Below are positions 3,367-55,701 of a DNA stretch of 64,000 bases, one piece after another. This DNA is from a virus (taxonomy: Duplodnaviria; Caudoviricetes): positions 1-64,000 of the IMG/VR virus record IMGVR_UViG_3300028887_000103; one strand, 5' to 3'. Position 1 is the stretch's first letter. Each line of letters opens with the position of its first letter. The notes beneath the pieces were generated by a model. The model did not search any database. It was not told where the DNA came from and worked only from the letters and a program-made list of their open reading frames with translations. The position numbers and the translations under genes are program-made.

Positions 3367-5373
3367 ATGACAATAGAAAATGCAAATAGTCATCCTTATA
3401 AGGTGGCTTTAACGAGTGAGTCTGATGGTATGTTCGCTAATTCCCACCCCTATAAGGTGTCTATCGTTGAGGGTGGAACTGAACTAGTTTCAGAATTACC
3501 CGAAGAAGGAAAGAAAGGGGCGATTTACGTTCTAGTCGACGACGCTGAAAATCCAACAAAAGTCTATGGGATGTATATCTATGACAACGGTTGGGTTCTG
3601 GCAGCACAACCTGTTGACCAAGCAGTTCAACTAGTCGAGGAACTTCCAGAAGAAGGAGAAGAGGGTGTCCTCTATTATGTCCCAAAAACAGGGCAAACAG
3701 ACACCTACGACTTGTACAGGTGGATAAATGACAGTTGGGTTAAAGTTGATACCGATATTGTTCTATATTCTCAAGAAGGTAACGGTATAGATGGTGCTAT
3801 GACTCAATCAGCTACGACTGCAATGAAAGGCAAAGCAAAGGTTCTCACTACAGCTAATTATAACTGGAACTCTGTGTCTAAGGATACGACAGCACCCTAT
3901 GATTCTGTGGCACTCTGGCTCTTAGAGGATGGCTTATATTCTGCTCTAGCAGGAGTAAAAGTAGGAATTTACAAGACTTTCTATTCTGAAAACCCATTAT
4001 GCTACCTAGTGAGCTCCGCAAGTAGCCAAACTAAGAACATTTATACTTTTGAAATGCACCATTCCTACATACAAAAATCTTATGGACCAGTAATAGACAG
4101 ATTCGAGGTTACAGTCGCTACTGGTGTACTATCGGCATCTGCGAGTTTTGCTTCCAGAGATACTGTAACATCTATGATTACAGACTATATTAAGAGTGGA
4201 AATGGTACTCCTTCAGGAGTTCCGATAGAGGGTGCTGGTGTTTTGTATGAAGACAAGACTAGCGGAGAGCTTTACCAATACGACGGAACTAACTGGAACA
4301 AATTTACTACTAAAAACTATACCGATGGTTTAGTCGGTGTGGCTAGAGTTCTTACTGCTGATGACTATAACTATCCAATTGACAATCCAAAAGGAGTAGC
4401 TCTCTGGCTTCTTCCAGCTGGAACATACACACTAGGTTCTGGCTGTGTAGCATACTCGTACGAGATGTCTATGCAAGGGGGTTCTCCAGCGGTAGCAGAC
4501 CAAGACGCGACGTATATAGTTGGAGTTAACGGTACTTATGGACTTCCGATTGTAAAGATTAAAAAAATGGTACAAAGCGTTGGCACTGGGCTTACCAGAA
4601 ACTTTGTTCTTTCTGCAGTCACAGTCACCAACTCCACTGGGTATAGCCCAAGTGGCTTTGAGACTATTGGACCAATACCGCACAACTCGTTGTCATCAGA
4701 TAGCACAGATATTCCACTAGCTGCTTATCAAGGTAAAGTGCTTAATGATAAAATCAGCAACATACAATCTCTTATCCGTAATTTGAGCAGTGCTGATTAT
4801 GATTATCCAGATAACAATCCAGCAGGTGTAGCTTTGTGGAGGCTTTCTGATGGGATTTATCATAGCCCTGAACTTGTTAAGGTTTATCCTACTTCTGCCC
4901 AAAGCTTGGCATTCACGACTTCATCATTCTTCATTAAAGTCTCTGGCGGTCCTAATGATGCAGTACAGCTCTATACAATGACCGGCGCAGGAGGACACAT
5001 ACGATATTTTTGGGTTGACCCTACTACTGGAGATTGTACAGATATTAACCAAGTTTTTCTAAAAGGTAATGATTGTGTTGACAATTTGCTAGCAACAACT
5101 ATCAACCGACCTCTTTCAGCAAATCAAGGTAAGGTGTTGAAAGAAACAATCGATAGTATTGCCATCAAAAATGCAGGAGCTCCAACCACAGCTACCGTAG
5201 GAACAGTAGGACAGATTTTAGAAGATACCACGAATGGTAAACTTTATATCTGCACAGCAGTTTCAGGAAGCACATATACTTGGGATGAGGTAGCGACCAA
5301 GGGCTACGTTGACAATATCGTTGGGAATATCGAGTCTGCCCTAAACATAATTAACAATGGAGGAGAGAGCTAA
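3367..5373 (+). CDS. Fibre/adhesin-like virion protein with repeated modules
   Basis: Three (V/L)L(T/S)xxxY(N/D)x..VALWxL modules; two PL(A/S)AxQGKVL fibre-type motifs; Thr/Ser/Gly-rich. Confidence 0.6.
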   Translation: MTIENANSHPYKVALTSESDGMFANSHPYKVSIVEGGTELVSELPEEGKKGAIYVLVDDAENPTKVYGMYIYDNGWVLAAQPVDQAVQLVEELPEEGEEGVLYYVPKTGQTDTYDLYRWINDSWVKVDTDIVLYSQEGNGIDGAMTQSATTAMKGKAKVLTTANYNWNSVSKDTTAPYDSVALWLLEDGLYSALAGVKVGIYKTFYSENPLCYLVSSASSQTKNIYTFEMHHSYIQKSYGPVIDRFEVTVATGVLSASASFASRDTVTSMITDYIKSGNGTPSGVPIEGAGVLYEDKTSGELYQYDGTNWNKFTTKNYTDGLVGVARVLTADDYNYPIDNPKGVALWLLPAGTYTLGSGCVAYSYEMSMQGGSPAVADQDATYIVGVNGTYGLPIVKIKKMVQSVGTGLTRNFVLSAVTVTNSTGYSPSGFETIGPIPHNSLSSDSTDIPLAAYQGKVLNDKISNIQSLIRNLSSADYDYPDNNPAGVALWRLSDGIYHSPELVKVYPTSAQSLAFTTSSFFIKVSGGPNDAVQLYTMTGAGGHIRYFWVDPTTGDCTDINQVFLKGNDCVDNLLATTINRPLSANQGKVLKETIDSIAIKNAGAPTTATVGTVGQILEDTTNGKLYICTAVSGSTYTWDEVATKGYVDNIVGNIESALNIINNGGES

Positions 5374-6611
5374 TGACAATAGCAAGTGAAATAGAAGATT
5401 TAGCAACAAACTTGTCGGCTGCAAAAACTGCTGTAACCACTGCTGGTGGTACCGTTGGAGATACTGGCTTAGCGGGACTAGCAGAGGAGATTGCTAGCAT
5501 CCCTACTGGGGGCGGTGGGAATGTCCCTATCGGTGATTATGGGAAAGTAGCTTACTATACAAGACTTTCTTTCGTTATCGAGGACGTTATGGCGATGGGA
5601 TGCAATGCAGAGGTGGTAGATTCTTCTAAACTTATGCCTTTTGTAGAAGGAAACGATGTTGAGTTGCGATACGAAGATGGCTCTTGGCAAGTAGGATGGG
5701 GAGGTGGCGATACCTATACAACCGCAGAAGTAGAATCCGAAATTGGTGTTCGTATTACGAACATTGTGGATATTTTTGCAGAAGTTCGTATTATGGGAAC
5801 TTCAGGTATTGACATTACTTCAGAAAGGAAAGAGTGCACGATAGACACGTTACAGGATTTTGGAAAATTCTATACAGATAGTTCCAGTAGCGTTGTTTTA
5901 CCTAACGGTGACACCATTGTCCCTGGTCAAATCGTAGGTTATATTCTTGGTAGCGAAGTTACTAGTATAGGTAATTATTTTCTGGGTGGCTGCGACAATT
6001 TTTTAAGTTTTGATGCTAGTCTTGCTACTGGATTGACTACAATCGGTGATGGCTTCTTAGCCTATATGGACAAAGCAACTGGGGAAATAAGCCTCCCGGC
6101 AGTCACATCTGTTGGTGATTATTTCTTAGCGTCTTCAAATTTTACTTCTGTCAAACTGCCAAACCTTGTAACTGCGGGCAACAGCTTCTGTAGTATTACA
6201 CGACTTCAAGCGATTCCATCATTGCCACATTGTACAACTATTGGAAGTACTTTCTGTAGTAATTGCTCATATCTTCAATCTGCAAGTTTTTCTAGCATTC
6301 CTTTGCTTGAGACGCTTGGGGGAAATGCTCTTGTGACTTGTTCTAGTTTGAAGAGTATAAGTCTTACTGGTATGCCTAATATAACATCAATAGGACAAAG
6401 GTTTGCCCATAATTGTAGTAGCCTGGCTTCCGTGTCCTTTCCAAACAACGACATTTCGACCTGTTTCCAAGCCAGTGACACGGAGTCTTTTTCCGCAGGC
6501 TCATCGTCTGCCTTATCGTACATAGCAGGTATGTCGGCTTCTGGAAACAGTACCAATATTAAAAGCAAATTCCCTAGCGTTGCATATTACCCATACAGAA
6601 AGTGGAGATAA
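5373..6611 (+). CDS. BspA-type leucine-rich-repeat (LRR_5) protein
   Basis: Repeats such as VTSIGNYFL, LTTIGDGFL, VTSVGDYFL, CTTIGSTFC, ITSIGQRFA. Confidence 0.8.
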   Translation: MTIASEIEDLATNLSAAKTAVTTAGGTVGDTGLAGLAEEIASIPTGGGGNVPIGDYGKVAYYTRLSFVIEDVMAMGCNAEVVDSSKLMPFVEGNDVELRYEDGSWQVGWGGGDTYTTAEVESEIGVRITNIVDIFAEVRIMGTSGIDITSERKECTIDTLQDFGKFYTDSSSSVVLPNGDTIVPGQIVGYILGSEVTSIGNYFLGGCDNFLSFDASLATGLTTIGDGFLAYMDKATGEISLPAVTSVGDYFLASSNFTSVKLPNLVTAGNSFCSITRLQAIPSLPHCTTIGSTFCSNCSYLQSASFSSIPLLETLGGNALVTCSSLKSISLTGMPNITSIGQRFAHNCSSLASVSFPNNDISTCFQASDTESFSAGSSSALSYIAGMSASGNSTNIKSKFPSVAYYPYRKWR

Positions 6612-6646
6612 TAAGAAAGGAAAATAGAACAGTAAGGTTTTAGAAA

Positions 6647-7144
6647 ATGACAGTTCTTGACAATGTGAAAGAAATGAAAGGGTGGATAGCAGGGGCAATC
6701 GGTTTTGATGCATCTGTTACCACCTTGCTTGTCGCTATTTTTGGAGTGGATGCTGTAAAGACTACGATTGCGACTACGGCGACTACAATAGCGGCTTTGG
6801 CAATTATTTTTCTTATCTACAAAAGCGAGGCTAGGTCAAGAACTGAACTACAAAATCATATTGAGGAGGCCAGTGGGTCGCTTAAAGAGATGAAGCGTAG
6901 ATTCGATGATATAGACAAAGTTCTGCTAGAAATTCGTAGGTCCAGTCTTCGTATAGAACTTGGAAATGAGATGAGGGCTCATCCAGAAAACCACGATACT
7001 ATTATGAAAATGGCTGAAAAATACTTTGGGAAGATAGAAAAAGGTGGGTTAGAAGGAAACTGGGTGATGGAGGATGCTTTCAAAAACTGGGTAAATTCTG
7101 AAAAAGAAAAAGGAAGACCAGTTAACACACCGAAAGAATGGTAG
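6647..7144 (+). CDS. Membrane protein, holin-like (two N-terminal TM segments plus coiled coil)
   Basis: Hydrophobic WIAGAIGFDASVTTLLVAIFG and IAALAIIFLIY stretches. Confidence 0.5.
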   Translation: MTVLDNVKEMKGWIAGAIGFDASVTTLLVAIFGVDAVKTTIATTATTIAALAIIFLIYKSEARSRTELQNHIEEASGSLKEMKRRFDDIDKVLLEIRRSSLRIELGNEMRAHPENHDTIMKMAEKYFGKIEKGGLEGNWVMEDAFKNWVNSEKEKGRPVNTPKEW

Positions 7145-7156
7145 TATAATATAGAT

Positions 7157-7654
7157 ATGGAGGTTTGGAAAAAGATTGCAGAATACGGTGGTAAATATGA
7201 GGTCAGCAATCTTGGAAATGTCAGGAGTTTTTACAGAAAGACTAACGGGGTTATTTTGAAAAAAAGGTTAGATAAGGGTGGGTATGTGCGTTATTACTTA
7301 TACGGCAGAGAAAAACCACAATTCAGATTTGCCCATAGGTTAGTGGCTGAAGCATTTATTCCAAACCCAGATAATAAACCACAAGTCAATCATAAAAATG
7401 GCATCAGAGCAGATAATCGAGTTGAAAATCTTGAGTGGTGCACTGCCTCTGAAAATATGCGACACAGAGTCTATAAACTTAACGGCTTTTCTGTCAGACC
7501 CAGGAGGAAAGTTCTTTGCATAGAGACCAATCAAACTTTTGAAAGTGTTCGTGAGGTATTCAGGTGGTTGAAATATCCCCACTCAGACATAGTGTTTCAT
7601 CTACAAGGGAAACTTTCACACTGTAGAGGGTATCATTTTAAGTATCTTGAATAG
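7157..7654 (+). CDS. NUMOD4-HNH homing endonuclease
   Basis: [17 protein letters not shown]; [35 protein letters not shown]. Confidence 0.92.
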
Positions 7655-7779
7655 CAGTATTTTCTAAAACTGTGTGCGAGTTGGGTGGGCTTATCACACG
7701 GCTTTAGCCCGTGGTAGAACATTCAAATAAAACCTACGCTATTTCGCACGTATTGCTATCTAGGAGCCGTCTTGTAGCC

Positions 7780-7812
7780 GAAGATGATATATGTATCGTC
7801 TTCTTCTTTTTT
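7780..7812 (+). terminator. Intrinsic terminator
   Basis: GAAGATGAT/ATCGTCTTC stem followed by TTCTTTTTT. Confidence 0.6.
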
Positions 7813-7830
7813 GGAAGGGAGGTGAGGAAT

Positions 7831-8241
7831 ATGTCTAAAAAAAGAAGGTTAAGACAGCGTATCAAGAAGAGTCGGAAAAAGGATGCGAGGTTACAAGGAA
7901 AAGATTGTCACCATATCTTCTTTCAGAAGAGATATTGGAAGGGGGGTTTGAAAGGGGAACTCAGGATGCATTGGTATTGCAGAGTGTATATTCCTCGTGA
8001 CACCTTACACCGAGAACTTCATTCATTGATAATGACAATCCCTGTTCCTCGATACTGTAGTATCAGAAGTGCTACGGAACAACTGAAGATGCTGGAGAAG
8101 TATGGTGCTATAAAAAACACCGACCCGATTGACAAAAGATTACGAGTCTTTATCGCTCTGTTCGAGTGTATAGAAGACCCCACAGCAGATGCTCTTAAAG
8201 CACAGTTAGAAATAGTGGATAGGTTTCAGCCCTCCAAGTGA
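7831..8241 (+). CDS. Hypothetical protein with His/Cys motifs (HNH-like remnant possible)
   Basis: SD GGAGGTG before ATG 7831; DCHHIFFQKR..LHRELH. Confidence 0.6.
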   Translation: MSKKRRLRQRIKKSRKKDARLQGKDCHHIFFQKRYWKGGLKGELRMHWYCRVYIPRDTLHRELHSLIMTIPVPRYCSIRSATEQLKMLEKYGAIKNTDPIDKRLRVFIALFECIEDPTADALKAQLEIVDRFQPSK

Positions 8242-40858: not shown

Positions 40859-40965
40859 GGGGCTGACAGGATTAGAATCTTAAAGAATGTTACGGACGAA
40901 AAAGGGTTTGAAAATAAGTCTGGAGTACTTAAGATGACGTGGTTTCGACACCACCAGCTCCACCA
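40859..40965 (+). ncRNA. Miniature tmRNA-like RNA (alanine tRNA-like domain, mRNA-like domain nearly absent)
   Basis: GGGGCTG/CAGCTCC-ACCA with G3:U70; tmRNA-type D-loop ACAGGATTAGA; P2 ATCTTAA/TTAAGAT; GAC linker; T-arm GTGGT-TTCGAC-ACCAC; TG-TATAAT at 40843-40850. Confidence 0.8.
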
Positions 40966-40978
40966 GGAGGAGAGGAAT

Positions 40979-41542
40979 ATGGGAAGACCGAAGATTAGAG
41001 AGGATTGTTCTGTTACTGGTTGTGACAAGCCCTATTTTGGTAGAGGCTACTGTGTTATGCATTATGCTCGTTGGAAGAAAAATGGAGATACTGGACCAAT
41101 AGGAAAGTATGGACAAAGGAGAAAAGTTTTTAGGACAGAAGACCACCCACTTTATGAAACTTATAGAGGTATGGTAAAAAGATGTTGTTTGAAGACGCAT
41201 ATTCACTATAAAGATTATGGCGGTAGGGGTATTAAGGTTTGCGATAGATGGTTAGGTAAAAATGGGTTTGATAATTTTATTGAAGATATGGGTGAAAAGC
41301 CAAGCGGATACAGTTTGGATAGAATAGACAATGATGGTAATTATTGCCCAGAAAATTGTCGTTGGGCTACCCATATAGAACAGGCTAGCAACAAACGTAA
41401 CAATAAAATTATTACATATAAAGGTGAAACCCATACAGCGGCAGAGTGGAGTAGGATTCTAGGTATAAGACCAGGCACATTTTCTGAACGAAGAAGGGCA
41501 TATCCTAACGACAAGGACAAATGGTTTAAGGAGTTGGTATGA
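40979..41542 (+). CDS. HNH-type endonuclease with N-terminal Zn finger
   Basis: [16 protein letters not shown]; [12 protein letters not shown]; [20 protein letters not shown]; SD GGAGG right after the tmRNA-like CCA. Confidence 0.85.
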
Positions 41543-43897: not shown

Positions 43898-44524
43898 ATG
43901 GTTACGATAATTACTTTAGTTAGCAATCGGAAAGGATTTGAAAATCTGAAGAGAAATCTAGTCAGTTTTGAATCTGATTGGAAACTTGGGGTGGATATTC
44001 TTTGTATTGTTTCAGACTATGACTTATATCTAGAATGTCGGAATTTCTTGCACGAAAATGTAGATAGAGGGGAATGTCTAGTTGTCTTTGACCAAGATGC
44101 TACCTTAAAGTCTGGAAAAGAATATCTGGATACCAAGAATGAATATGTGTTCTTACTTGCCGAGAATGTCAGAGTTCCGAGTGGTGGTATCACTAAACTA
44201 TACAAAAACTATCTTGAAAAACCACAGGCAGGGTTCATCACAGGGGAGTGGAACCAATTCCCGACTGTTCGCTGGGTCAAAGATATCTATGGTGCTCCGA
44301 AGTATATCTATTCAAATGAGCCGTCACCTTATGGGTTAAGAATGGATATAGATGTGGCAGAAGTCCACGGCATAATGACAAAAACTAGTCTATACAAAGA
44401 ATTGTTCTGTGCAGAGGATTTAGATGGTTACGGTAGTCATAGTTTCGGGATACGATTAAGAAGGCAAGGATACAAAAATTATATTAACACAGGGGTAGAA
44501 TACAAATATGGAGGTAACGAGTGA
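43898..44524 (+). CDS. Divergent GT-A (family 2-like) glycosyltransferase
   Basis: TIITLVSNR..LKRNL; EYVFLLAENV (DxD position degenerate); FGIRLRRQGYKNYINTGV. Confidence 0.5.
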   Translation: MVTIITLVSNRKGFENLKRNLVSFESDWKLGVDILCIVSDYDLYLECRNFLHENVDRGECLVVFDQDATLKSGKEYLDTKNEYVFLLAENVRVPSGGITKLYKNYLEKPQAGFITGEWNQFPTVRWVKDIYGAPKYIYSNEPSPYGLRMDIDVAEVHGIMTKTSLYKELFCAEDLDGYGSHSFGIRLRRQGYKNYINTGVEYKYGGNE

Positions 44525-45405
44525 AAATAATTATGTTGAAGGGGTTGCCTGCGAGTGGAAAATCTACTTGGGCTAGGGAGCGTCAAAAGGAAGGTGGCAA
44601 TTATCTAGTCATAAGCAAAGATGAAATTCGTAAGATGTTCGGCGGGTATGCCCCCAAGCGAGAGAAAGATGTCTTAAGAGTAAGAAATGAACTGATAAAA
44701 CTGGGCATTAAACTACGCAAGAATGTAATAGTGGATGATACCAACTTGAACATCAAGCACGAAAGATATATCAGACAATTGGCAAATGAACTAGGGGTGA
44801 AGTTTGAAATCAACGATGACTTTATGGAAGTTCCACCAGAAGAATGTATAAAACGAGATTTACACCGTGGAGAAAAGGCCGTCGGTGCTAGCGTGATTTG
44901 GGATATGTATTATAGATGGGTGGCACCAGACCCACAAGTCAATTTAGATGTAAACTTTGACAAACCGAGGTGTGTGATTTGTGATGTCGATGGCACATTG
45001 GCTCTGAATACAGAGGGCAGAAGTTTCTACGATTTGTCCAGAGTTAACGAGGATACGGCTGACCCGTTTGTCTCTTGCGTAGTAGATGCTCTGTATAACT
45101 ATGGCACTGAAATCAATGGGGATAAATACCCTAGCATAATTATCTTGAGTGGAAGGGAAGAAATAAGTAGAGAAGCCACGGAGGGGTGGCTTAAACAATA
45201 TGGTATTCCTTATGACCAAGTGATAATGCGAGAAACTGGGGATAAACGGAGTGATAGTATTGTGAAGCGAGAACTCTATGAAAAATATGTAGAGCCAAAC
45301 TACTGTGTCTTGGGAGTGATAGATGATAGACCTAGCGTCTGTGCTGTCTGGCGTAGTTTAGGCTTAAGAGTTGCTCAAGTTGGTAACCCATATATTGATT
45401 TCTGA
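44521..45405 (+). CDS. pseT: Polynucleotide 5'-kinase/3'-phosphatase (T4 PseT-like)
   Basis: GLPASGKST Walker A; VIVDDTNL; HAD DVDGTL; LSGRE; IDDRP. Confidence 0.92.
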   Translation: MKIIMLKGLPASGKSTWARERQKEGGNYLVISKDEIRKMFGGYAPKREKDVLRVRNELIKLGIKLRKNVIVDDTNLNIKHERYIRQLANELGVKFEINDDFMEVPPEECIKRDLHRGEKAVGASVIWDMYYRWVAPDPQVNLDVNFDKPRCVICDVDGTLALNTEGRSFYDLSRVNEDTADPFVSCVVDALYNYGTEINGDKYPSIIILSGREEISREATEGWLKQYGIPYDQVIMRETGDKRSDSIVKRELYEKYVEPNYCVLGVIDDRPSVCAVWRSLGLRVAQVGNPYIDF

Positions 45406-46064: not shown

Positions 46065-46826
46065 ATGAAAACAAAAGATTTAGATATAGTTTACTGTCTC
46101 AAAGAAAAAGTAACTCACGAGGAGTTCAGGTATTCTTTGAGGTCATTGAAAAACATAGAGCACAACCGAGTATGGGTTTTTGGTGGCTGTCCAGATTGGC
46201 TTGATTTAGATAAGGTAGAATATGTCAAGACACTACAGAATAAGGGGAATAAATGGCTCAATGTGGCAAGTATGCTTTTAGAGATTGCAGAGAATGACAA
46301 TGTCACGGAAGATTTTATCTGGTTCAATGACGATTTCTTTGTGCTTCAAAAAACAGATGAGTTGAATTACTACTATGATAGGACACTTTCAGCCAGAATA
46401 TCTGATTTCTATAAACTTCATCTGTATCTGATGAATAACAACTACACTCGTAGGTTGGCGAATGCGAATAGAGCGTTGAAGTGGAAGAAACAAACCACAC
46501 TAAACTATGAATTACATTTACCGATAATCTTTAACCGTAAGAAGTTGGCAGAAGTGATAAAGGCTTATCCAAATGTCGGTGCCAAGAGAAGTCTCTACGG
46601 GAATAATTATGTAGAAGATGCCATCCAACGAAATGATGTTAAGATATATGACAATGAAAATACCCCCGACGATACTTGGGATTTTGTATCCACTAGCGAT
46701 AGTTCTTTTGTTGCAGGAAATGTTGGAAAATATATTCGTCAGAAGTTTAAGGCTAAAAGCAAATATGAAAAAGTTGACAAGAAAAAAAGCAAGCGCTATA
46801 ATAAAACTGAAAAGGAGAACGAATGA
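46065..46826 (+). CDS. Stealth-family-like phosphoglycosyl (hexose-1-P) transferase
   Basis: LDIVY, EFRYSLRSL, FIWFNDDFF motifs. Confidence 0.7.
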   Translation: MKTKDLDIVYCLKEKVTHEEFRYSLRSLKNIEHNRVWVFGGCPDWLDLDKVEYVKTLQNKGNKWLNVASMLLEIAENDNVTEDFIWFNDDFFVLQKTDELNYYYDRTLSARISDFYKLHLYLMNNNYTRRLANANRALKWKKQTTLNYELHLPIIFNRKKLAEVIKAYPNVGAKRSLYGNNYVEDAIQRNDVKIYDNENTPDDTWDFVSTSDSSFVAGNVGKYIRQKFKAKSKYEKVDKKKSKRYNKTEKENE

Positions 46827-48549: not shown

Positions 48550-49188
48550 GTGAAAAAAAATCTTAAAGATGTCAATATGGGCTGGGTTGCGACATCTGCT
48601 ATAGTGGCTTATGCAATTATAGCGATTGCGACTGATATGTTCGCAAACAAAATGCTAAGCATCGGAAGTCTAACGCTAGCAGGCGGTATTCTGATGATTC
48701 CGTTCAGTTTCACCATTCGTGACTTAATCCACAAATTGATTGGGTTTGACAATGTGAAGAAGGTGGTCTGGACTACTGCAATTGTAAATCTAGTGGTAGC
48801 GATATTACTTATCGTTCTAGATGTTATTCCGTCGGCAGTTCCGGGCCAACAAGAGGCTTGGCACGCTTTGATGGGTGCTAGTTGGCGAGTGATAATCGCT
48901 TCGTTCATAGCACAACTTGTGGCTGATTTAGGTAATACCTATGTCTACCAATGGGTGTGGAATAAACTTGGCGATAAACACGTTTGGTTGAGGACTATCA
49001 TTTCAAACTTGCCAGCGTGTTTTCTAGATTCGGCGATATTCAGTTATATTGCGTTTCTAGGGGTGCTTGACCCAAACATTATCTGGGCGAGTGTTATAAG
49101 TTCATTCGCAGTAAAGTATGTCCTGTCGATTGTAGCGACACCACTTACTTACTTGAGTGAAACAAAGGAAAAAGAAAAGAAGAAATGA
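48550..49188 (+). CDS. yhhQ: Queuosine-precursor (preQ0/preQ1) transporter, YhhQ/VUT family
   Basis: FANKML..GILMIPFSFTIRDLIH..RVIIASFIAQLV..LRTIISN..DSAIFSYIAF. Confidence 0.88.
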   Translation: MKKNLKDVNMGWVATSAIVAYAIIAIATDMFANKMLSIGSLTLAGGILMIPFSFTIRDLIHKLIGFDNVKKVVWTTAIVNLVVAILLIVLDVIPSAVPGQQEAWHALMGASWRVIIASFIAQLVADLGNTYVYQWVWNKLGDKHVWLRTIISNLPACFLDSAIFSYIAFLGVLDPNIIWASVISSFAVKYVLSIVATPLTYLSETKEKEKKK

Positions 49189-49230
49189 CAATATCCTGCT
49201 GGTCTGGGCTGGCAGGGGTAAAGGAATAGA

Positions 49231-49473
49231 ATGAGTCTAATTGAAGCAACAGGTCTAATAGCAACACTCCTAGTCTTTGTATCGTTCCTACCCAAGAATA
49301 TCGTGTTTATCCGATGGGCTAACTTGATAGGAAGTATATTCTTCGTCATCTATGGCTTTGGGATAGGTGCGTTCTGGACGGGGTTTATGAATGCTTGTTT
49401 GATACTTGTTCAGGCTTATCACTTAACTAAAATCTATATGGAAAGGAAAAAGAATGGCAGGAAAGATAAATAG
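49231..49473 (+). CDS. Small three-TM membrane protein (YgjV/PQ-loop-like)
   Basis: FIRWANLIGSIFFVIYG motif. Confidence 0.65.
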   Translation: MSLIEATGLIATLLVFVSFLPKNIVFIRWANLIGSIFFVIYGFGIGAFWTGFMNACLILVQAYHLTKIYMERKKNGRKDK

Positions 49474-49816
49474 TCTTACTGAAGAAGAGCAAGCAAAATG
49501 GCTTGACAATACTTATGGGATTGACGAGATTAAATTCGTCGAGGAAATACAGCATCATTGTCCACTAGGTGAGCAGGTCGGAGTGACAACTTATAATGTG
49601 GAAGTCGTGCCTGGAAAGCACTTGGCAGAGTTAATCCAACTGCACTGGGATATTCAGAAACTAATGGGACAAACATTCACACTTGAAAGTGGTGCTGCTG
49701 AAGTTCTAGAGATAGTGAAAAAAGCGTATGTTGACCCTGAATATGTCTGTGTGAGAGCCAAGTGTCCACCCAACCGACATATGAGCGTGGAAGTATCAGT
49801 GGAATACGAGGGTTAA
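49454..49816 (+). CDS. QueF-like tunnel-fold protein
   Basis: HHCPLG (Cys-Pro), FTLE, YVCVRAK; inside deazaguanine cluster. Confidence 0.6.
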   Translation: MAGKINSLTEEEQAKWLDNTYGIDEIKFVEEIQHHCPLGEQVGVTTYNVEVVPGKHLAELIQLHWDIQKLMGQTFTLESGAAEVLEIVKKAYVDPEYVCVRAKCPPNRHMSVEVSVEYEG

Positions 49817-50638
49817 ATGTTACTGTTCTTCGCCGCTACAGAAGCAAGACAACACAGGGACGCTGCAATCGAGGGAGGTGTTAAAAACTCCCTCCAGTCT
49901 TTTTACACACTAGGTTGCGGTAAAGGAGTTCCAGATAACAAGAAGTTTGAGAATTATCTACTTGATTCGGGTGGGTATTCTGCTAGAAAGCACGGTATAG
50001 ACATCAATGTCGAAGATTATGCTAGGTATCTCAATAACTACAAGATTAAAGTGGCGTTCAATCTAGACTTCAAGGACAATGACAAAAGTCTTCGGAATCA
50101 GAAATATCTTGAAACCCATACCGATACTTATGTGCTTCCTGTTTACCACGGGACAGAATGGATGAATCCGAAGTGGGATGGGTTGCTTGAATACTATATG
50201 GAACACTACCCATATATTGCTTTGGGTGGTATGGCAGGCAGGGAAAACTCGAAGGAAAATCTACCGAGATTTTTGAATTATGTATTCAGCAGAACTAAAA
50301 ACAAAACCCAAGTTCACGGTCTAGGAATGACTAGTGAGCCACTGCTTAAGCAATATCCGTTCTATTCTGTCGATTCCACGAGTTGGATGAGTCCAGCATT
50401 GTTCGCCAACAGCAGAATACACGGCGAGAAGTGGATGAAGGCTAACGCTAAAAGCAGACACTTCACCTATAACATCATAGATGAGATGCCGTTCTGGTTT
50501 AAACTTGAAAAAGATGTTACGAAACTCTGGGAACAAAGAGGGGTGAGGTGGGGAAAGTTTGATTATGATATATTCATATCAAAGAGGAAGAAAGAAATTC
50601 CTACTTTTGAAGAATGGAGAAATCATAATATAATATAA
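49817..50638 (+). CDS. dpdA: DpdA-like DNA-guanine transglycosylase, paralogue 1
   Basis: LLDSGGYS, AFNLD, PVYHG, IALGGMAG, VHGLGM, VDSTSW (TGT-fold motifs). Confidence 0.82.
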   Translation: MLLFFAATEARQHRDAAIEGGVKNSLQSFYTLGCGKGVPDNKKFENYLLDSGGYSARKHGIDINVEDYARYLNNYKIKVAFNLDFKDNDKSLRNQKYLETHTDTYVLPVYHGTEWMNPKWDGLLEYYMEHYPYIALGGMAGRENSKENLPRFLNYVFSRTKNKTQVHGLGMTSEPLLKQYPFYSVDSTSWMSPALFANSRIHGEKWMKANAKSRHFTYNIIDEMPFWFKLEKDVTKLWEQRGVRWGKFDYDIFISKRKKEIPTFEEWRNHNII

Positions 50639-50640
50639 CT

Positions 50641-51156
50641 ATGGCAAGTGGTGTTTATATTATAAAAGTAGGCAAAACTAAATATGTCGGAGCATCTGGC
50701 AATCTAAAGGTTAGAAAAGAAATACATTTTAATCAATTAAAAAGAGGAAAGCATTATAATCCATATTTACAAGAAGCCTACAACAAAAGTCAGGAATTTC
50801 GATTTGAAATAATAGAAGAGTGTGAAAATTCTTTTGAAAGGGAAAGGTGGTGGGTAGAGAGAATAGGAATAGAAAAATTAGCAAATGAAATTCTACCAGA
50901 CGGGGTTAGTGGGATTCCAAGCGAGAGGATGAATAAGAAGCGTTCAGATTCTCTAAAAAAGTATTATGAAACCCACGATGGTAATAAAACTTGGTTAGGG
51001 AAGACCAGGTCAGAAGAAACAAAACAAAAACTCCGAGAGCATCATAACCCTAAGAGCAATCCAAAAGGGTGTGTTCGGTCCGAGGAAACAAAGAGGAAAA
51101 TCTCAGAATCAATTAAGAAGTGGCATCAGGAGAGGAAAAATGCAGGAAAAAGCTAA
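50641..51156 (+). CDS. GIY-YIG homing endonuclease with NUMOD3 repeats
   Basis: SGVYII..YVGAS; RSEETKQKL / RSEETKRKIS. Confidence 0.88.
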   Translation: MASGVYIIKVGKTKYVGASGNLKVRKEIHFNQLKRGKHYNPYLQEAYNKSQEFRFEIIEECENSFERERWWVERIGIEKLANEILPDGVSGIPSERMNKKRSDSLKKYYETHDGNKTWLGKTRSEETKQKLREHHNPKSNPKGCVRSEETKRKISESIKKWHQERKNAGKS

Positions 51157-51796
51157 AGAAATATTTGAGTTTGACCCTAAAAAACTTTTGAAGGTTCCTA
51201 TTTCGGAGGTTCGGGAAAATAATTGGAATCCAAAAGACCCAAATAGCCCAGAATATGAAAAAGTAAAAAGGTCTATCGAAATCAATGGTTTAACTCAACC
51301 AATTTTTGTTAGAGAGAATAGTGATGGGGATACAAAATATGAAGTCTTAGACGGAGCTCATAGATTTAGAAGTTGCAAAGAATTGGGGTTCAAGGAAATT
51401 TACATCTATAACGAAGGTGTTGTCCCAGACCCTTTGGCAAAAAGTTTCACTATCTATCATCAAATTCAGGTTCCGTTCGATGAAGCAGAATTGGCACCAA
51501 TCGTGATGGAGTTAAACAACTTGCAGATGGAGTTACCTTACAACGAACTAGAGATAGATGGTTTTAGGAACTTGGCTAGTTTTGATTTTGATAAGGCTTA
51601 CGAAAGTCAAACACCGTTGAAAGAAGACAATGACAAAGATGAGGAAATCTTAACTATAAAGATGACGGCAGACCAGATAGAAAAGGTCAATAACGCTATC
51701 GAGGAAGTGAAGGCTTCTAAAAAAGTAAAAGAAGGGGAGGCATTGACAATGTTATGCGAAGGAGGGCTAGATGTTATATTTTCTGACGAATCTTAA
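51140..51796 (+). CDS. ParB-N-terminal-domain protein 1
   Basis: VRENNWNPK..GLTQPIFVR..YEVLDGAHR. Confidence 0.85.
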   Translation: MQEKAKEIFEFDPKKLLKVPISEVRENNWNPKDPNSPEYEKVKRSIEINGLTQPIFVRENSDGDTKYEVLDGAHRFRSCKELGFKEIYIYNEGVVPDPLAKSFTIYHQIQVPFDEAELAPIVMELNNLQMELPYNELEIDGFRNLASFDFDKAYESQTPLKEDNDKDEEILTIKMTADQIEKVNNAIEEVKASKKVKEGEALTMLCEGGLDVIFSDES

Positions 51797-52676
51797 GAAA
51801 CAGGCACCGTGGCAAATAGACTATGAAAATCTTTACCAGAAATACTTGACCGTGCCATATAAAGTTCTTACAGATAGAAGTCAATTGAGTGAGTTGACCG
51901 ATAAAGATATTCTTTGGATACAACACTTTTTGGATATTGATACTCCAGAAACTAGGGCTTGCAAGGCTCGTAAGATGGCTCAGGTCAATGGAACAGCAGT
52001 CAACCCGTATATTGGTGCCGTGGATAAGAAACAGGAAGAAATTGAATACAACGAGATTTTAGACATTGCTTTGGTTTTTGATAGCGTAATCTCTTCCACA
52101 ATGAAACACGCTTATCCGAAGGTAGATTTTTGGCGAGTAGGGTTCCCGATTCCAGAAATAAAACTTCCTCAAGTAGAAAAAAAGAAACAAATCTGCATTG
52201 CTGGAAGGCTGGATGCTTACAAGAATGTGAATATAAATATCTGGCTGACAGAGAATTTACGACGAGAAGGGTATAAAGTAATCTTCTGTTACCCAGATAA
52301 AGATGTCCAAGCAGAAAGAGTCCAACTTTACAAACCAGAGAAGTTTGACAATCTTGAGTTCAGACGCTGTAAGAAGGAAGAATGGCTACAGATTGCCAAC
52401 GAGAGTGAGTTCTATCTTTTGACAAGTTTCGATGATGTCTGTTCTGTGAGTATGTGGGAAGCCTACTATGCTGGGTGCTATTTACTTATTCCAGACATTC
52501 AAACCGGAATTATCAGGTATCCTGCGTATGTCAATCCACAGTTCCGTGCGTTTGACCGAGATTCTTTGGAATGTTTAGTGGAAACAAAACCAAAACAAAC
52601 CGTCAATACAATCAATATAATACCTCAAAAATGCGTAGAAAGGTTGGAGGAATACTTAAATGAAGAAAGTCTATGA
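51771..52676 (+). CDS. GT-B (family 4-like) glycosyltransferase
   Basis: IAGRLDAYKN..FYLLTSFDD..SMWEAYYAG. Confidence 0.7.
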   Translation: MLYFLTNLKKQAPWQIDYENLYQKYLTVPYKVLTDRSQLSELTDKDILWIQHFLDIDTPETRACKARKMAQVNGTAVNPYIGAVDKKQEEIEYNEILDIALVFDSVISSTMKHAYPKVDFWRVGFPIPEIKLPQVEKKKQICIAGRLDAYKNVNINIWLTENLRREGYKVIFCYPDKDVQAERVQLYKPEKFDNLEFRRCKKEEWLQIANESEFYLLTSFDDVCSVSMWEAYYAGCYLLIPDIQTGIIRYPAYVNPQFRAFDRDSLECLVETKPKQTVNTINIIPQKCVERLEEYLNEESL

Positions 52677-53691
52677 TTTAGATGGGACTATCTGTGAAAA
52701 TGGAAGTCCAGAAAACTTTGCAAATGCAATTGCTTTTAAGGAAGTGATTGCTGAAATAAACAATTCTTACGATGCTGGCGATGAAATCGTGATTCACACT
52801 GCTAGGCTAGCAAAAGACCGAGAAGTGACAAAAGAATGGCTTAAAAAGAATGGAGTAAAGTATCACGAGTTGCTAATGGGCAAACCAACGGCTGACCTCT
52901 ATATTGATGATAAAGCCCTTCCTTACATTCCAGCAAGAGGGCCACAACTCAATAGGAAGAAGTTGGCTGTCTGTATCTCTGGAGGGATGGATTCTTACAT
53001 CGCTTACTGGTATGCCATCTATGAAAAAGGATATGACCCTGAAGATATTATCTGTCTAAACTTTGATATCGGGCATCCTTACAGAAAGAAAGAACAGGAA
53101 TGTTTGAAAAAGTTAGAAATTCCTTATGAAACTATCACGGTGGATATTTTGCGACCAGAGTTTGGCAATATGCCAGACGAGGAAAATTATATTATCCCGG
53201 CAAGGAATATGATTTTTGCGTCTATAGCATCTGGATTTGCTGAACGGGTGTGGATAATGGGAATGAAATACGAAGACCATTACTTTATGCTAGACAAGAA
53301 TACAAACTTCTTTAAGGGTGCGTCTTTCATTTTAAGTCAAGCAACAGGAAACCCTACAGTAGTGGAAACCCCGTTCAAGAACTTGACAAAAACTGACATC
53401 ATTAACTGGGCAAAGAACTTCAAACTTCCTCACCTGCACGATACGACTTCTTGCTATAACCCAGACCATCAAAGATGTGGTAAATGTTCGCTATGCTTTA
53501 AGAGATATATCGCTATGAAGGCTTGTGGTCTAGACGAAGAGTTTGCTACTGACCCTACCCAATCAGAAGAGGCAAAGCGTCTAGTGGAGGCTTACAGAGA
53601 AGCAGTGAAAAATAATGATTACACCCACTACCAGAAGGATAGAATTGAAGAAACCTTCCGAGTGCTGGGTTTGGATGAAAAAGGATACTAG
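52660..53691 (+). CDS. queC: HAD phosphatase fused to QueC-like 7-cyano-7-deazaguanine synthase
   Basis: N-terminal DLDGT..HTAR..KP..YIDDK; C-terminal SGGMDS, PARNMIF, SCY..CGKCSLC. Confidence 0.85.
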   Translation: MKKVYDLDGTICENGSPENFANAIAFKEVIAEINNSYDAGDEIVIHTARLAKDREVTKEWLKKNGVKYHELLMGKPTADLYIDDKALPYIPARGPQLNRKKLAVCISGGMDSYIAYWYAIYEKGYDPEDIICLNFDIGHPYRKKEQECLKKLEIPYETITVDILRPEFGNMPDEENYIIPARNMIFASIASGFAERVWIMGMKYEDHYFMLDKNTNFFKGASFILSQATGNPTVVETPFKNLTKTDIINWAKNFKLPHLHDTTSCYNPDHQRCGKCSLCFKRYIAMKACGLDEEFATDPTQSEEAKRLVEAYREAVKNNDYTHYQKDRIEETFRVLGLDEKGY

Positions 53692-54498
53692 ATGCTAATT
53701 TTCTTTGCAGGAGCAGAAGGAGAAGACTTTAGAATAATTCTAAAGCAGGCAGGAGCCAAGAATGTGCTTCAATCGTTTTGGGCTTTAAGACCAGACAAAC
53801 CACCGAAGACAGAGGCGTTTGACAATTATTTACTAGATTCAGGTGGGTTTTCGGCAAGGCAACACGGAGTTGAAATAAGTGTCCAAGAGTATGCTAACTA
53901 CTTGAATATGTATAAAATCAAGTATGCTTTCAACTTGGATGTTCTAGACTTAAAGACGAGTTTGAAAAACCAAGACTACCTAGTCAGAAATACCAACACT
54001 TACATTATGCCAGTCTATCACGGCAATGAATGGATTGACCCTAAAACCAGAGATTTGCTTGATTATTATATCGAGTGCTTCCCATACATAGCCCTAGGAG
54101 GTATGGCAGGCAGAGAAAATAGCAAAGCCAACCTTCCGAAGTTTCTAAATTATGTATTCAAGAGAACTAGAGATAAGACAAAAGTCCACGGGCTAGGGAT
54201 GACGGGGGTGACCTTCCTTCGCAAATACCCGTTCTTCTCGGTAGATTCAACGAGTTGGATTTGCATAAACCGATATGCCCAGAGTAAAGTCTATTCCCAC
54301 GAGATGACCAGAGTTCGGCTTAACAACAGGTCGTGGAGGGAAAATCTTGTTCCAGAAGCAAAACATTGGATTGGAGTGCAAAATGAAATGACAAGGCTAT
54401 GGGATAGACGGGGTATCGTCTGGGGAAACCTCGACTATGATAAACTGATGGCAGAAAGAAAGGTTATGACCTATGAAGAATGGAAGGAAAAGAAATGA
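53692..54498 (+). CDS. dpdA: DpdA-like DNA-guanine transglycosylase, paralogue 2
   Basis: LLDSGGFS, AFNLD, PVYHG, IALGGMAG, VHGLGM, VDSTSW. Confidence 0.82.
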   Translation: MLIFFAGAEGEDFRIILKQAGAKNVLQSFWALRPDKPPKTEAFDNYLLDSGGFSARQHGVEISVQEYANYLNMYKIKYAFNLDVLDLKTSLKNQDYLVRNTNTYIMPVYHGNEWIDPKTRDLLDYYIECFPYIALGGMAGRENSKANLPKFLNYVFKRTRDKTKVHGLGMTGVTFLRKYPFFSVDSTSWICINRYAQSKVYSHEMTRVRLNNRSWRENLVPEAKHWIGVQNEMTRLWDRRGIVWGNLDYDKLMAERKVMTYEEWKEKK

Positions 54499-55076
54499 GA
54501 GATTTTAACCCAGATAACATACAGATTGTGGGTATAGATGAGGTTCGGCCTAACGGCTGGAACCCTAAACTTGAAAATACACCAGAATATCAAAAGATTG
54601 TAGAAAGTATCCAAGTCAATGGCTTCAAGTCCCCTATTATCGTGCGAGAAGTAGAAGGAGAAGACGGCTATGAAATCTGTGACGGTTGTCAGAGATGGAA
54701 TGCCGCTAAACAACTAGGCTTTGACAAAATCTACATTTACAACTTGGGTAAGATTTCAGAAAGTGAAGCGAAGTCTATCACTATCTGGATGGAAACTCAA
54801 GTCAAGTTTGATGAGTTGCAACTTGCACCACTTGTGGCAGAATTAAACGATTTGCAAATGACAATGCCATACACGGAAGATGAAGTTCAAGATTACATAA
54901 ATATGCTTCACTTCGATTTTGAGGGTGATGGCAAAATCAGTTTGAGTGTTAAATGCACTCCAGAACAGTTCGATAAGATTAAAGAATGTCTGAATGTCTA
55001 TACTTACAACAATGAAGTGGAGGAAGACAAGGCTTTGGTGGAAATGGTAAAACTAGGAGTGAAGAGGTATGAGTAG
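54495..55076 (+). CDS. ParB-N-terminal-domain protein 2
   Basis: VRPNGWNPK..GFKSPIIVR..YEICDGCQR. Confidence 0.8.
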   Translation: MRDFNPDNIQIVGIDEVRPNGWNPKLENTPEYQKIVESIQVNGFKSPIIVREVEGEDGYEICDGCQRWNAAKQLGFDKIYIYNLGKISESEAKSITIWMETQVKFDELQLAPLVAELNDLQMTMPYTEDEVQDYINMLHFDFEGDGKISLSVKCTPEQFDKIKECLNVYTYNNEVEEDKALVEMVKLGVKRYE

Positions 55077-55701
55077 TGATTTTGACCCAAAAAATCTGAA
55101 GAAGATTAAAATATCTGAAATGCTGTTTAACGACTGGAATCCGAAGGAGAATGAAAAAGACTATGAGAAGGTCAAGAAGTCGATAGTCGTCAATGGATTG
55201 GTCACTCCAATTTTTGTGCGTAAAACAGATGAGGGCTATGAGGTTGTCGATGGTAATCAGAGGGCAAGGGCTTGCAGAGAGTTAGGTTACACAGAAATCT
55301 ATGTCTATGATTTAGGTGAAATCAGTGAGGCAGAGGCAAAACAACTAGTTCTTTATCTTCAGATTCAAGTTCCGTTCGTAACTGATATGCTAGCACCAAT
55401 CGCTGTGGAATTGGAAAGTCTAGGTATGGAGTTGCCCTACAATGAAAAAGAGATGCAGAAGTTTCGTGATTTAGAAGCGTTTGATATGGACACGGCTTAT
55501 GAAGACGAAGAACCAGTGCCAGAGCCAGAAAAACCAGAAGACGAGATAAAAGAAAAACTTAAAACCTACAAGATTAAACTCCAACCAGAAGATTTCGATA
55601 TAGTGCGAGATGCTATTGATAAAGTCATAATGTCCGAGAATGTGAATGAAGGCAGGGCTTTGGAGTTGCTTTTGCTTGTGGCGATGGAATGGGAAAGTTA
55701 G
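55069..55701 (+). CDS. ParB-N-terminal-domain protein 3
   Basis: FNDWNPK..GLVTPIFVR..YEVVDGNQR. Confidence 0.8.
   Translation: MSSDFDPKNLKKIKISEMLFNDWNPKENEKDYEKVKKSIVVNGLVTPIFVRKTDEGYEVVDGNQRARACRELGYTEIYVYDLGEISEAEAKQLVLYLQIQVPFVTDMLAPIAVELESLGMELPYNEKEMQKFRDLEAFDMDTAYEDEEPVPEPEKPEDEIKEKLKTYKIKLQPEDFDIVRDAIDKVIMSENVNEGRALELLLLVAMEWES

Follow-up and report, generated by a model that had tools for sequence, protein, structure and literature searches.

An operon of 11 co-directional genes (positions 48550-55701, + strand) was analysed in a 64,000-nucleotide window of phage DNA, the first 64 kb of the 80,372-bp IMG/VR record IMGVR_UViG_3300028887_000103, which comes from an uncultured phage and is rated 100% complete by CheckV. 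In order, the genes encode a YhhQ-type transporter, an 80-amino-acid YgjV/SemiSWEET-like membrane protein, a QueF-family T-fold protein, a DpdA transglycosylase (DpdA-a), a GIY-YIG endonuclease, a ParB-like protein (ParB1), a GT-B glycosyltransferase (GT), a HAD phosphatase fused to QueC (HAD::QueC), a second transglycosylase (DpdA-b) and two further ParB-like proteins (ParB2 and ParB3). The core of the operon is the known phage DpdA1 system (PMC6884629, PMC10516641). We judge it an even proposition that the operon replaces guanine post-replicatively with a 7-deazaguanine derivative, that it is extended in supply, insertion and tailoring, and that its product is a glycosylated 7-deazaguanine outside the eight described. 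New among the observations is that GT and HAD::QueC form one cassette. We further propose, tentatively, that GT-HAD::QueC marks an undescribed deazaguanine branch, combining a sugar-bearing (hexose or hexuronate-derived) base, a DpdA that depends on a ParB-type NTPase, and the first true phage enzyme of the non-reducing QueF-L type.

The glycosyltransferase and HAD::QueC cassette

Searching the AlphaFold2 (AF2) model of GT against the PDB with Foldseek gave 190 matches at E<=1e-3, led by TarM, SenB, GtfA, OtsA, PimA and BshA (probability 1.0, E about 4e-7), and nearly all matches in BFVD were glycosyltransferases, including entries named 'DNA alpha-GT'. The residues that in GT4 enzymes bind the nucleoside-diphosphate (NDP) sugar donor are conserved, namely R146 and K151 of a GRxxxxK motif and D222 and E230 of a Dx7E motif. 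The family is rare, with 13 close clusters in 5.8 billion proteins and 48 representatives in 1.84e9 proteins; Pfam Glycos_transf_1 is matched by 8 of 29 members (best 6e-7), while the GT of the window matches no Pfam model. With the T4 alpha- and beta-glucosyltransferases and other phage DNA glycosyltransferases GT shares the GT-B fold and, as predicted, the NDP-sugar donor and the post-replicative decoration of a modified base; those enzymes, however, act on 5-hydroxymethyl-pyrimidines, and apart from the fold GT shows no particular likeness to them. A hydroxymethyl-pyrimidine acceptor was considered and rejected, as the genome has no thymidylate-synthase-like gene. Kinship with the tRNA-queuosine mannosyltransferase QTMAN/GTDC1 was also considered and found no support, since neither the 29 family members (E<=0.1) nor the atlas neighbours matched QTMAN_N. 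A PDB profile search with the GT profile returned chance matches only, such as thermosome, and searches for related loci with the single GT proteins P0001, P0018 and P0024 found nothing.

The N-terminal 90 amino acids of the fusion form the HAD domain, which matches phrog_1238, TIGR01689 ('capsule biosynthesis phosphatase') and the PDB entries 1XPJ (3.9e-7) and 9IQW ('capsule biosynthesis protein'). The QueC domain that follows is a divergent member of its family, scoring 86 bits against Pfam QueC (cut-off 22) and 71.7 bits against TIGR00364 (cut-off 150.3), with an SGGMDS PP-loop and the zinc motif SCYNPDHQRCGKCSLC (C-x8-C-x2-C-x2-C). Across 11 fusion homologues, D6, D8, K75, D83 and D84 of HAD, S107, G109, D111 and S112 of QueC and the zinc-site residues C265, C273, C276 and C279 are invariant and T47 of HAD is nearly so, such that HAD motifs I-IV (DxD, T/S, K, DD) are all represented. 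The fusion family is 24-32% identical to plain phage QueC. It resembles Gat-QueC of phage 9g and Crenarchaeota in having an N-terminal accessory domain, which in the window fusion is predicted to redirect the end product as it does in Gat-QueC; in contrast to Gat-QueC, the accessory domain is a capless HAD phosphatase rather than a class-II amidotransferase, and always occurs with GT.

The link between the two genes is seen in other phages. Among 28 IMG/VR loci recovered with the alignment of the HAD::QueC fusion, five have a HAD-bearing QueC (L019, L020, L021, L022 and L023, from phages of 43-154 kb), and a GT-family open reading frame (ORF) lies immediately upstream of HAD::QueC and overlaps it in all five, as against 0 of the 23 loci with plain QueC. 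The same overlap is present in the window, in L001/L014/L015 and in L016, and the loci that carry the cassette span 46-66% QueC identity. L016 (ODIW01000168.1, 66.5 kb) has in contiguous order SSB, a 224-amino-acid ORF, YhhQ, the 80-amino-acid membrane protein (TM80), QueE, QueD, FolE, the QueF-like protein, GT, HAD::QueC, DpdA and ParB, and the order in L001/L014/L015 is QueE-QueD-FolE-TM80-GT-HAD|QueC-DpdA-ParB. By tblastn, neither the GT of the window nor that of L020 found a homologue in cultured phages, and no cultured-phage record covered at least 80% of HAD::QueC; no cultured phage in that collection therefore has the cassette. HAD and QueC are fused in the window, L016 and L020-L022, and occupy two ORFs in different frames with an overlap of about 20 nt in L001 (10001-11096), L014, L015 and L023. 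Three independent assemblies show exactly the same split, which excludes an assembly error and leaves a genuine split or programmed frameshifting. Stand-alone HAD homologues of about 90 amino acids (42-45% identity) occur in the cultured phages MT939241.1, OX422066.1 (Enterococcus, about 86 kb) and PV340853.1 (Synechococcus); those of Enterococcus phages adjoin dUTPase. Annotations of the stand-alone homologues vary between phosphoheptose isomerase, HAD hydrolase and polynucleotide kinase.

In the mechanism that we favour, GT would work with the QueC-fused HAD phosphatase to add a sugar-type decoration, giving the glycosylated product. The first-pass annotation, made from the sequence of the window alone, had already placed GT in the pathway: the synteny with HAD::QueC and the contiguous order of L016 support that placement, while the sugar on a deazaguanine of DNA stays a prediction, in which we infer both the acceptor and the final base. 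Chemical precedent is provided by HuiG, a group-1/GT4-type glycosyltransferase of the huimycin/dapiramicin pathway of Kutzneria albida, which is encoded with FolE-QueD-QueE-QueC and puts N-acetylglucosamine (GlcNAc) on a preQ0-derived 7-deazapurine (PMC7439116). The two enzymes are likened by type, gene context and a reaction that for GT is predicted; HuiG differs in that its product is a free secondary metabolite, glycosylated at N2, and in that no DpdA is present.

A known base alone (dPreQ0, dG+ or dADG) might instead be made, in which case GT-HAD would have as its target a deazapurine in free form, a metabolite of sugar-phosphate type, a protein or a glycan of the host, or, in a variant, would merely drive the QueC reaction, for example with HAD as a pyrophosphatase; we rate this as possible but doubtful. 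L003 (85.7 kb), a close relative in which YhhQ-TM80-QueF-like is followed by a different QueC, then a HAD gene of its own, DpdA and two ParB genes, does without GT, so that HAD is not strictly dependent on GT. A distant GT-family member in L013 (28% identity) has head and tail genes for neighbours and no QueC close by, which means that the GT family is not exclusive to the deazaguanine pathway. Most relatives with the QueF-family gene appear to be without GT (81 clusters, compared with the 13 close-homologue clusters of GT), and the nearest solved relatives of HAD are capsule-biosynthesis proteins. Moreover, GT (pI 5.3) and the QueF-family protein (pI 4.8) are both acidic, which fits small-molecule substrates better than DNA and mildly favours action on the free base. 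The points on L003, L013 and acidity also weigh against the reading that we favour, as do the only moderate confidence of the GT model, the lack in the QueF-family protein of the general-acid Asp that QueF and QueF-L have at Cys+7, the occurrence in cultured phages of paired ParB-like paralogues away from any DpdA, and the records of L020/L021, in which a DpdA1-type gene was not found. On the other hand, GT always adjoins HAD::QueC and never plain QueC in phages that differ widely in size and context, it sits between pathway genes with overlapping frames, and phages seldom spare room for an unrelated gene fixed at one position down to about 30-38% identity. As for L020/L021, hhalign of the DpdA profile against two unknown proteins of about 270 amino acids beside the L020 cassette was negative; Pfam TGT (PF01702) does not detect these DpdAs, and its negatives on L020, L021 and L023 are uninformative. 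The two phages may use another DpdA subfamily or another route of insertion. They carry FolE and QueE away from the cassette, at a distance of about 65 kb (measured in the L021 record), among replication genes.

The divergence of the QueC domain bears on another explanation, in which it is not, or not only, a preQ0 synthase and serves as an ATP-dependent amide ligase that couples an amine prepared by GT/HAD to the carboxylate of 7-carboxy-7-deazaguanine (CDG) or of a uronic acid, yielding an N-substituted 7-amido-deazaguanine (sugar-amide). The low TIGR00364 score and the low identity to plain phage QueC agree with this, as does a gene for a UDP-glucose/GDP-mannose dehydrogenase two genes upstream of GT in L020/L021, given that UDP-glucose dehydrogenase makes a sugar carboxylate, and QueC homologues are reported to make other amides in roseomycin-type clusters (10.64898/2026.04.15.718813). 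We nevertheless consider it improbable: HAD::QueC is the sole QueC beside FolE-QueD-QueE-DpdA in L001 and L016, the co-occurring QueF-family protein has the cysteine used for attack on a nitrile, implying that preQ0 is produced, and the PP-loop and the spacing of the zinc cysteines are canonical. The L020 locus (3965-8074; IMGVR_UViG_3300045988_088114) and L021 (IMGVR_UViG_3300045988_085453), from phages of 134-138 kb, comprise the dehydrogenase, a 243-amino-acid unknown, GT, HAD::QueC and then unknowns of 264, 595 and 274 amino acids, the last of which is methyltransferase-like.

Operon layout, proposed precursor supply and the QueF-family protein

Pfam, PHROG and NCBIfam models were applied to all 11 products, and AF2 models with Foldseek to the 120- and 301-amino-acid proteins (the QueF-family protein and GT); together with the 80-amino-acid ORF, these two had no family match in the first Pfam/PHROG/NCBIfam searches. 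The first-pass annotation fared well here. Its 11 genes were all recovered in place on the + strand (Table 1), and its gene calls were essentially correct, including the QueF-like and GT4-type calls that no Pfam, PHROG or NCBIfam match supported.

Table 1. Genes of the operon, in order, and neighbouring features of the window.
Feature	Position	Strand	Length (amino acids)	Supporting matches and properties
YhhQ/COG1738-type queuosine-precursor (preQ0/preQ1) transporter (predicted substrate)	48550..49188	+	212	Pfam Vut_1 1.2e-34; TIGR00697 91.1 bits (cut-off 50.95)
Membrane protein, half-size YgjV/SemiSWEET-clan transporter subunit by family matches	49231..49473	+	80	weak Pfam Imp-YgjV, E 0.024
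QueF-family T-fold protein, QueF-L-like, without NADPH motif	49454..49816	+	120	AF2 pLDDT 92; Foldseek 5JYX/5K0P
DpdA-a (DpdA1-type DNA guanine transglycosylase)	49817..50638	+	273	phrog_887 7e-37; pI 9.1
GIY-YIG/NUMOD3 homing endonuclease, free-standing, between dpdA-a and parB1	50641..51156	+		NUMOD3 3.6e-7; GIY-YIG 3.9e-4; phrog_314 1.6e-14; TIGR01453 2.9e-13
ParB-like protein 1, ParB/Noc-type N-terminal NTPase-like domain	51140..51796	+		ParB_N 1.3e-10; pI 4.6
GT-B (GT4-like) glycosyltransferase	51771..52676	+	301	AF2 pLDDT 70; Foldseek GT-B matches
HAD phosphatase::QueC fusion	52660..53691	+	343	Pfam QueC 2.9e-24, residues 104-287
DpdA-b	53692..54498	+	268	phrog_887 1.2e-38; pI 9.3
ParB-like protein 2	54480..55076	+		ParB_N 7.8e-11; pI 4.5
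ParB-like protein 3	55069..55701	+		TIGR04285 1.8e-11; TIGR00180 5.6e-9; pI 4.4
HNH homing-type endonuclease, free-standing, in the replication/modification region	40934-41542	+		phrog_3377 7e-51
Polynucleotide kinase/phosphatase	44521-45405	+		phrog_505 1e-82; own HAD domain distantly like the QueC-fused HAD (26% identity, tblastn)
Protein of unknown function, 1.7 kb upstream of the operon	46065-46826	+	253	phrog_7999; sub-threshold Pfam Stealth_CR2 4e-7 (30.6 bits, cut-off 39.4)

Nearly all genes of the phage are on the + strand, and the operon runs uninterrupted with overlaps at most junctions (8-26 nt shared or 0-2 nt between neighbours, with the 42 nt after yhhQ as the one exception); no terminator-like site was found within it on that strand. 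It follows the replication genes, which include a replication initiator, the exonuclease subunit of DNA polymerase, polynucleotide kinase and a single-stranded DNA-binding protein (SSB). No nucleotide relative of the operon was found by megablast against 50,697 phage records. The phage DpdA1 systems of 9g, CAjan and phiSM (PMC6884629, PMC10516641) have in common with it a DpdA1-family transglycosylase, QueC, a QueF-family protein and occasionally YhhQ, a position beside replication genes, and a predicted mode of action by post-replicative exchange of guanine. In contrast to them, the window has no FolE, QueD or QueE, has two DpdA and three ParB-like genes with an embedded GT-B gene, and has QueC fused to HAD rather than stand-alone or as Gat-QueC.

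The absence of FolE, QueD and QueE from the window was reported in the first-pass annotation, and the search of the rest of the genome that it suggested extends this result: FolE, QueD and radical-SAM QueE are encoded nowhere in the complete 80,372-bp record. QueC is retained despite this, with an intact PP-loop and zinc site. The phage would make no CDG of its own and would draw on the host pool or on precursors imported through the YhhQ-type transporter and the half-size YgjV/SemiSWEET-like protein, the QueC domain converting CDG to preQ0. YhhQ belongs to its family by a score above the cut-off, and its specificity for preQ0/preQ1 is predicted from sequence; salvage of precursor through it is likewise predicted. 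With preQ0 imported, QueC could be dispensed with, but both lineages that lack FolE retain it, and host CDG is therefore more likely than imported preQ0 to be the substrate of QueC. YhhQ and QueF-family genes co-occur in the window, L003 and L016, and L001 lacks both. The Imp-YgjV match of the 80-amino-acid protein covers the C-terminal half of the model, its atlas feature score is 0.93 with Imp-YgjV in 19 of the 30 nearest clusters, and all four related operon types (window, L001, L003 and L016) encode a homologue.

The QueF-family protein has no match to Pfam QueF, and its assignment comes from structure and conserved residues. Foldseek placed the archaeosine synthase QueF-L (5JYX/5K0P) first, with TM 0.77/0.88, an rmsd of 1.8 Å and 24% identity, and the unimodular QueF 4F8B second; a PDB profile search with the family profile returned spurious polyubiquitin repeats. 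In 31 homologues C36, E59, H64, E78, C104, N107 and H109 are invariant, and C36, where strand 1 ends, lines up with the catalytic Cys in the validated phiSM QueF. The motif for NADPH binding, E(S/L)K(S/A)hK(L/Y)(Y/F/W), is absent, ELKSLKYY of phiSM QueF being aligned with ELIQLHWD, and both of its lysines are replaced in every homologue, whereas all validated phage QueF proteins keep it. As such, the protein, called QueF-like in the first-pass annotation, cannot be a QueF-type reductase. With QueF-L of Pyrobaculum calidifontis (5JYX; PMC5485725) it shares a unimodular T-fold of about 105-120 amino acids, a cysteine at the thioimide position and the lack of the NADPH motif. It differs in having no sequence-level match, an acidic composition, an invariant Gly in place of Asp at Cys+7 and an invariant Glu40 (Cys+4), accompanied by Gln41 (Cys+5), and its substrate would be DNA or a free base where that of QueF-L is tRNA. 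We regard it as a QueF-family member that resembles QueF-L without having all of its features. It would convert the nitrile non-reductively to an amidine (dG+) or amide, and lacking the Cys+7 Asp it may differ in chemistry from QueF and QueF-L. QueF-L acts, with free ammonium, on preQ0 that the nucleic acid already contains; for the window protein, a net charge of -10 gives no support for nucleic-acid binding. More than 80 clusters of homologues were found, many on contigs of about 60-108 kb.

Two side observations concern genes upstream of the operon. The 253-amino-acid phrog_7999 protein has a weak likeness to the GNPTAB catalytic domain (E 0.055) and, from these sub-threshold matches, could act as a sugar-1-phosphate transferase; L003 has a homologue, and none was found in the GT-bearing L014-L016. 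The polynucleotide kinase/phosphatase and the HNH endonuclease are listed in Table 1.

Paired DpdA and ParB-like proteins

The two DpdA proteins are 52% identical to each other. They match the bacterial NCBIfam DpdA model weakly and far under its cut-off (2.8e-4 for DpdA-a and 1.9e-3), and a PDB profile search with the DpdA profile gave no match; tblastn found 183 phage records, headed by phiSM and the 9g/CAjan-like phages with about 30-34% identity. Both copies and their relatives have the motifs LLD50SGG(Y/F)54 and SVD186STSW without variation. DpdA of Salmonella Montevideo uses Asp95 as general acid/base and Asp256 as nucleophile, with a gating aromatic at Asp+4 (PMC10164549), and the weak NF041059 match (residues 131-197 to profile positions 199-266) puts D186 near position 256. 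By spacing and this match, LLDSGG(Y/F) would supply the general acid/base Asp and the gating aromatic, and SVDSTSW the nucleophile. A small tree places DpdA-b with the only DpdA of L003 (support 0.94) and DpdA-a elsewhere; either the duplication goes far back or one of the copies was acquired.

YhhQ, QueC and QueF-family proteins are also components of the queuosine pathway, and TGT-like enzymes act on tRNA in cells, so that the genes could in principle serve host tRNA queuosine or precursor pools and not phage DNA. We hold this to be very improbable, as both transglycosylases match DNA-acting phage DpdA (phrog_887) and not Pfam TGT, and their closest cultured relatives belong to phages with measured DNA modification (phiSM and the 9g/CAjan-like phages). 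In the reading that we favour, two diverged, basic DpdA1-type transglycosylases would swap guanine for the 7-deazaguanine base after replication.

Each DpdA gene is accompanied by genes for ParB-like proteins of 198-218 amino acids that are 36-48% identical to one another and carry a D-G-x-x-R motif (DGAHR, DGCQR and DGNQR). They are strongly acidic where DpdA is basic. The best solved relatives of ParB2 are the CTPase domains of Noc/ParB (7OL9, 1.3e-7, and 6SDK), with GxxRxxA aligned, and not proteins of DndB/SspE type. ParB1 most likely starts at M24 (51140), by alignment to its paralogues, and a GTG at 51071 is disfavoured. A ParB-like gene following DpdA recurs in about eight lineages: the window (twice), L001, L003, L016, L004, L027 and the cultured Cellulophaga phage phiSM, in which it overlaps dpdA, with the order reversed in L023. 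In relatives parB comes directly after dpdA, without the endonuclease that stands between them at the first window copy, and overlaps it in L001 and L003. A promoter-like site (10 of 12 matches) lies at 50607-50634, just upstream of the GIY-YIG gene.

A similar arrangement is found in the bacterial Dpd system of Salmonella Montevideo, where a TGT-like DNA transglycosylase is encoded beside a D-G-x-x-R NTPase of the ParB superfamily, and bacterial DpdA needs ATP hydrolysis by this ParB-like ATPase, DpdB, in vitro (PMC10164549). The ParB-like proteins of the window differ in being short, very acidic and nearest to the ParB/Noc CTPases rather than DndB/SspE-like as DpdB is, and the window lacks DpdC and the restriction half of the system. 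By analogy, the acidic ParB/Noc-type proteins, translationally coupled to each DpdA, would act as the phage counterpart of DpdB and aid insertion, and the second DpdA/ParB set probably widens the sequence context or the substrate range. When phiSM DpdA1 was expressed by itself in E. coli it showed no activity (PMC10516641), which a requirement for a ParB-like partner would explain; ParB is mentioned neither in that paper nor in Hutinet 2019 (PMC6884629) or the iggy paper. Pairs related to ParB2 (34-40% identity) are also encoded in Rhizobium phage RHph_X66 (L017) and Pseudomonas phage phiK7B1 (L018), beside helicase and ABC-ATPase-like genes, and no DpdA lies within the 4-5 kb examined on each side. 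Such pairs in phages must therefore have another role as well, one that has nothing to do with deazaguanine.

Novelty and significance of the predicted base

In the literature searched there was no account of the GT-HAD::QueC cassette, of a phage QueF-family protein without the NADPH motif, or of phage DpdA/ParB-like coupling or a doubled insertion module. The DpdA/ParB-like pairing could account for the inactivity of phiSM DpdA1 by itself (PMC10516641), and the QueF-family protein may settle whether phages have a real QueF-L. The cassette is compact and movable into E. coli.

7-Deazaguanine bases shield phage DNA from restriction and CRISPR nucleases. To our knowledge eight such derivatives are known in DNA (dPreQ0, dPreQ1, dG+, dADG, dCDG, dDG, mdPreQ1 and fdPreQ1), none of which bears a sugar, and all glycosylated DNA bases that we know of are pyrimidines. 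If the tentative proposal of an undescribed branch is true, the base made by this operon would rank ninth or later among the natural deazaguanines of DNA, and no genome would have shown a glycosylated purine analogue before. As the known glycosylated bases are all pyrimidines, a glycosylated deazaguanine would add a class to the hypermodifications of DNA and confront bacterial defence with a new obstacle, or offer it a new target.

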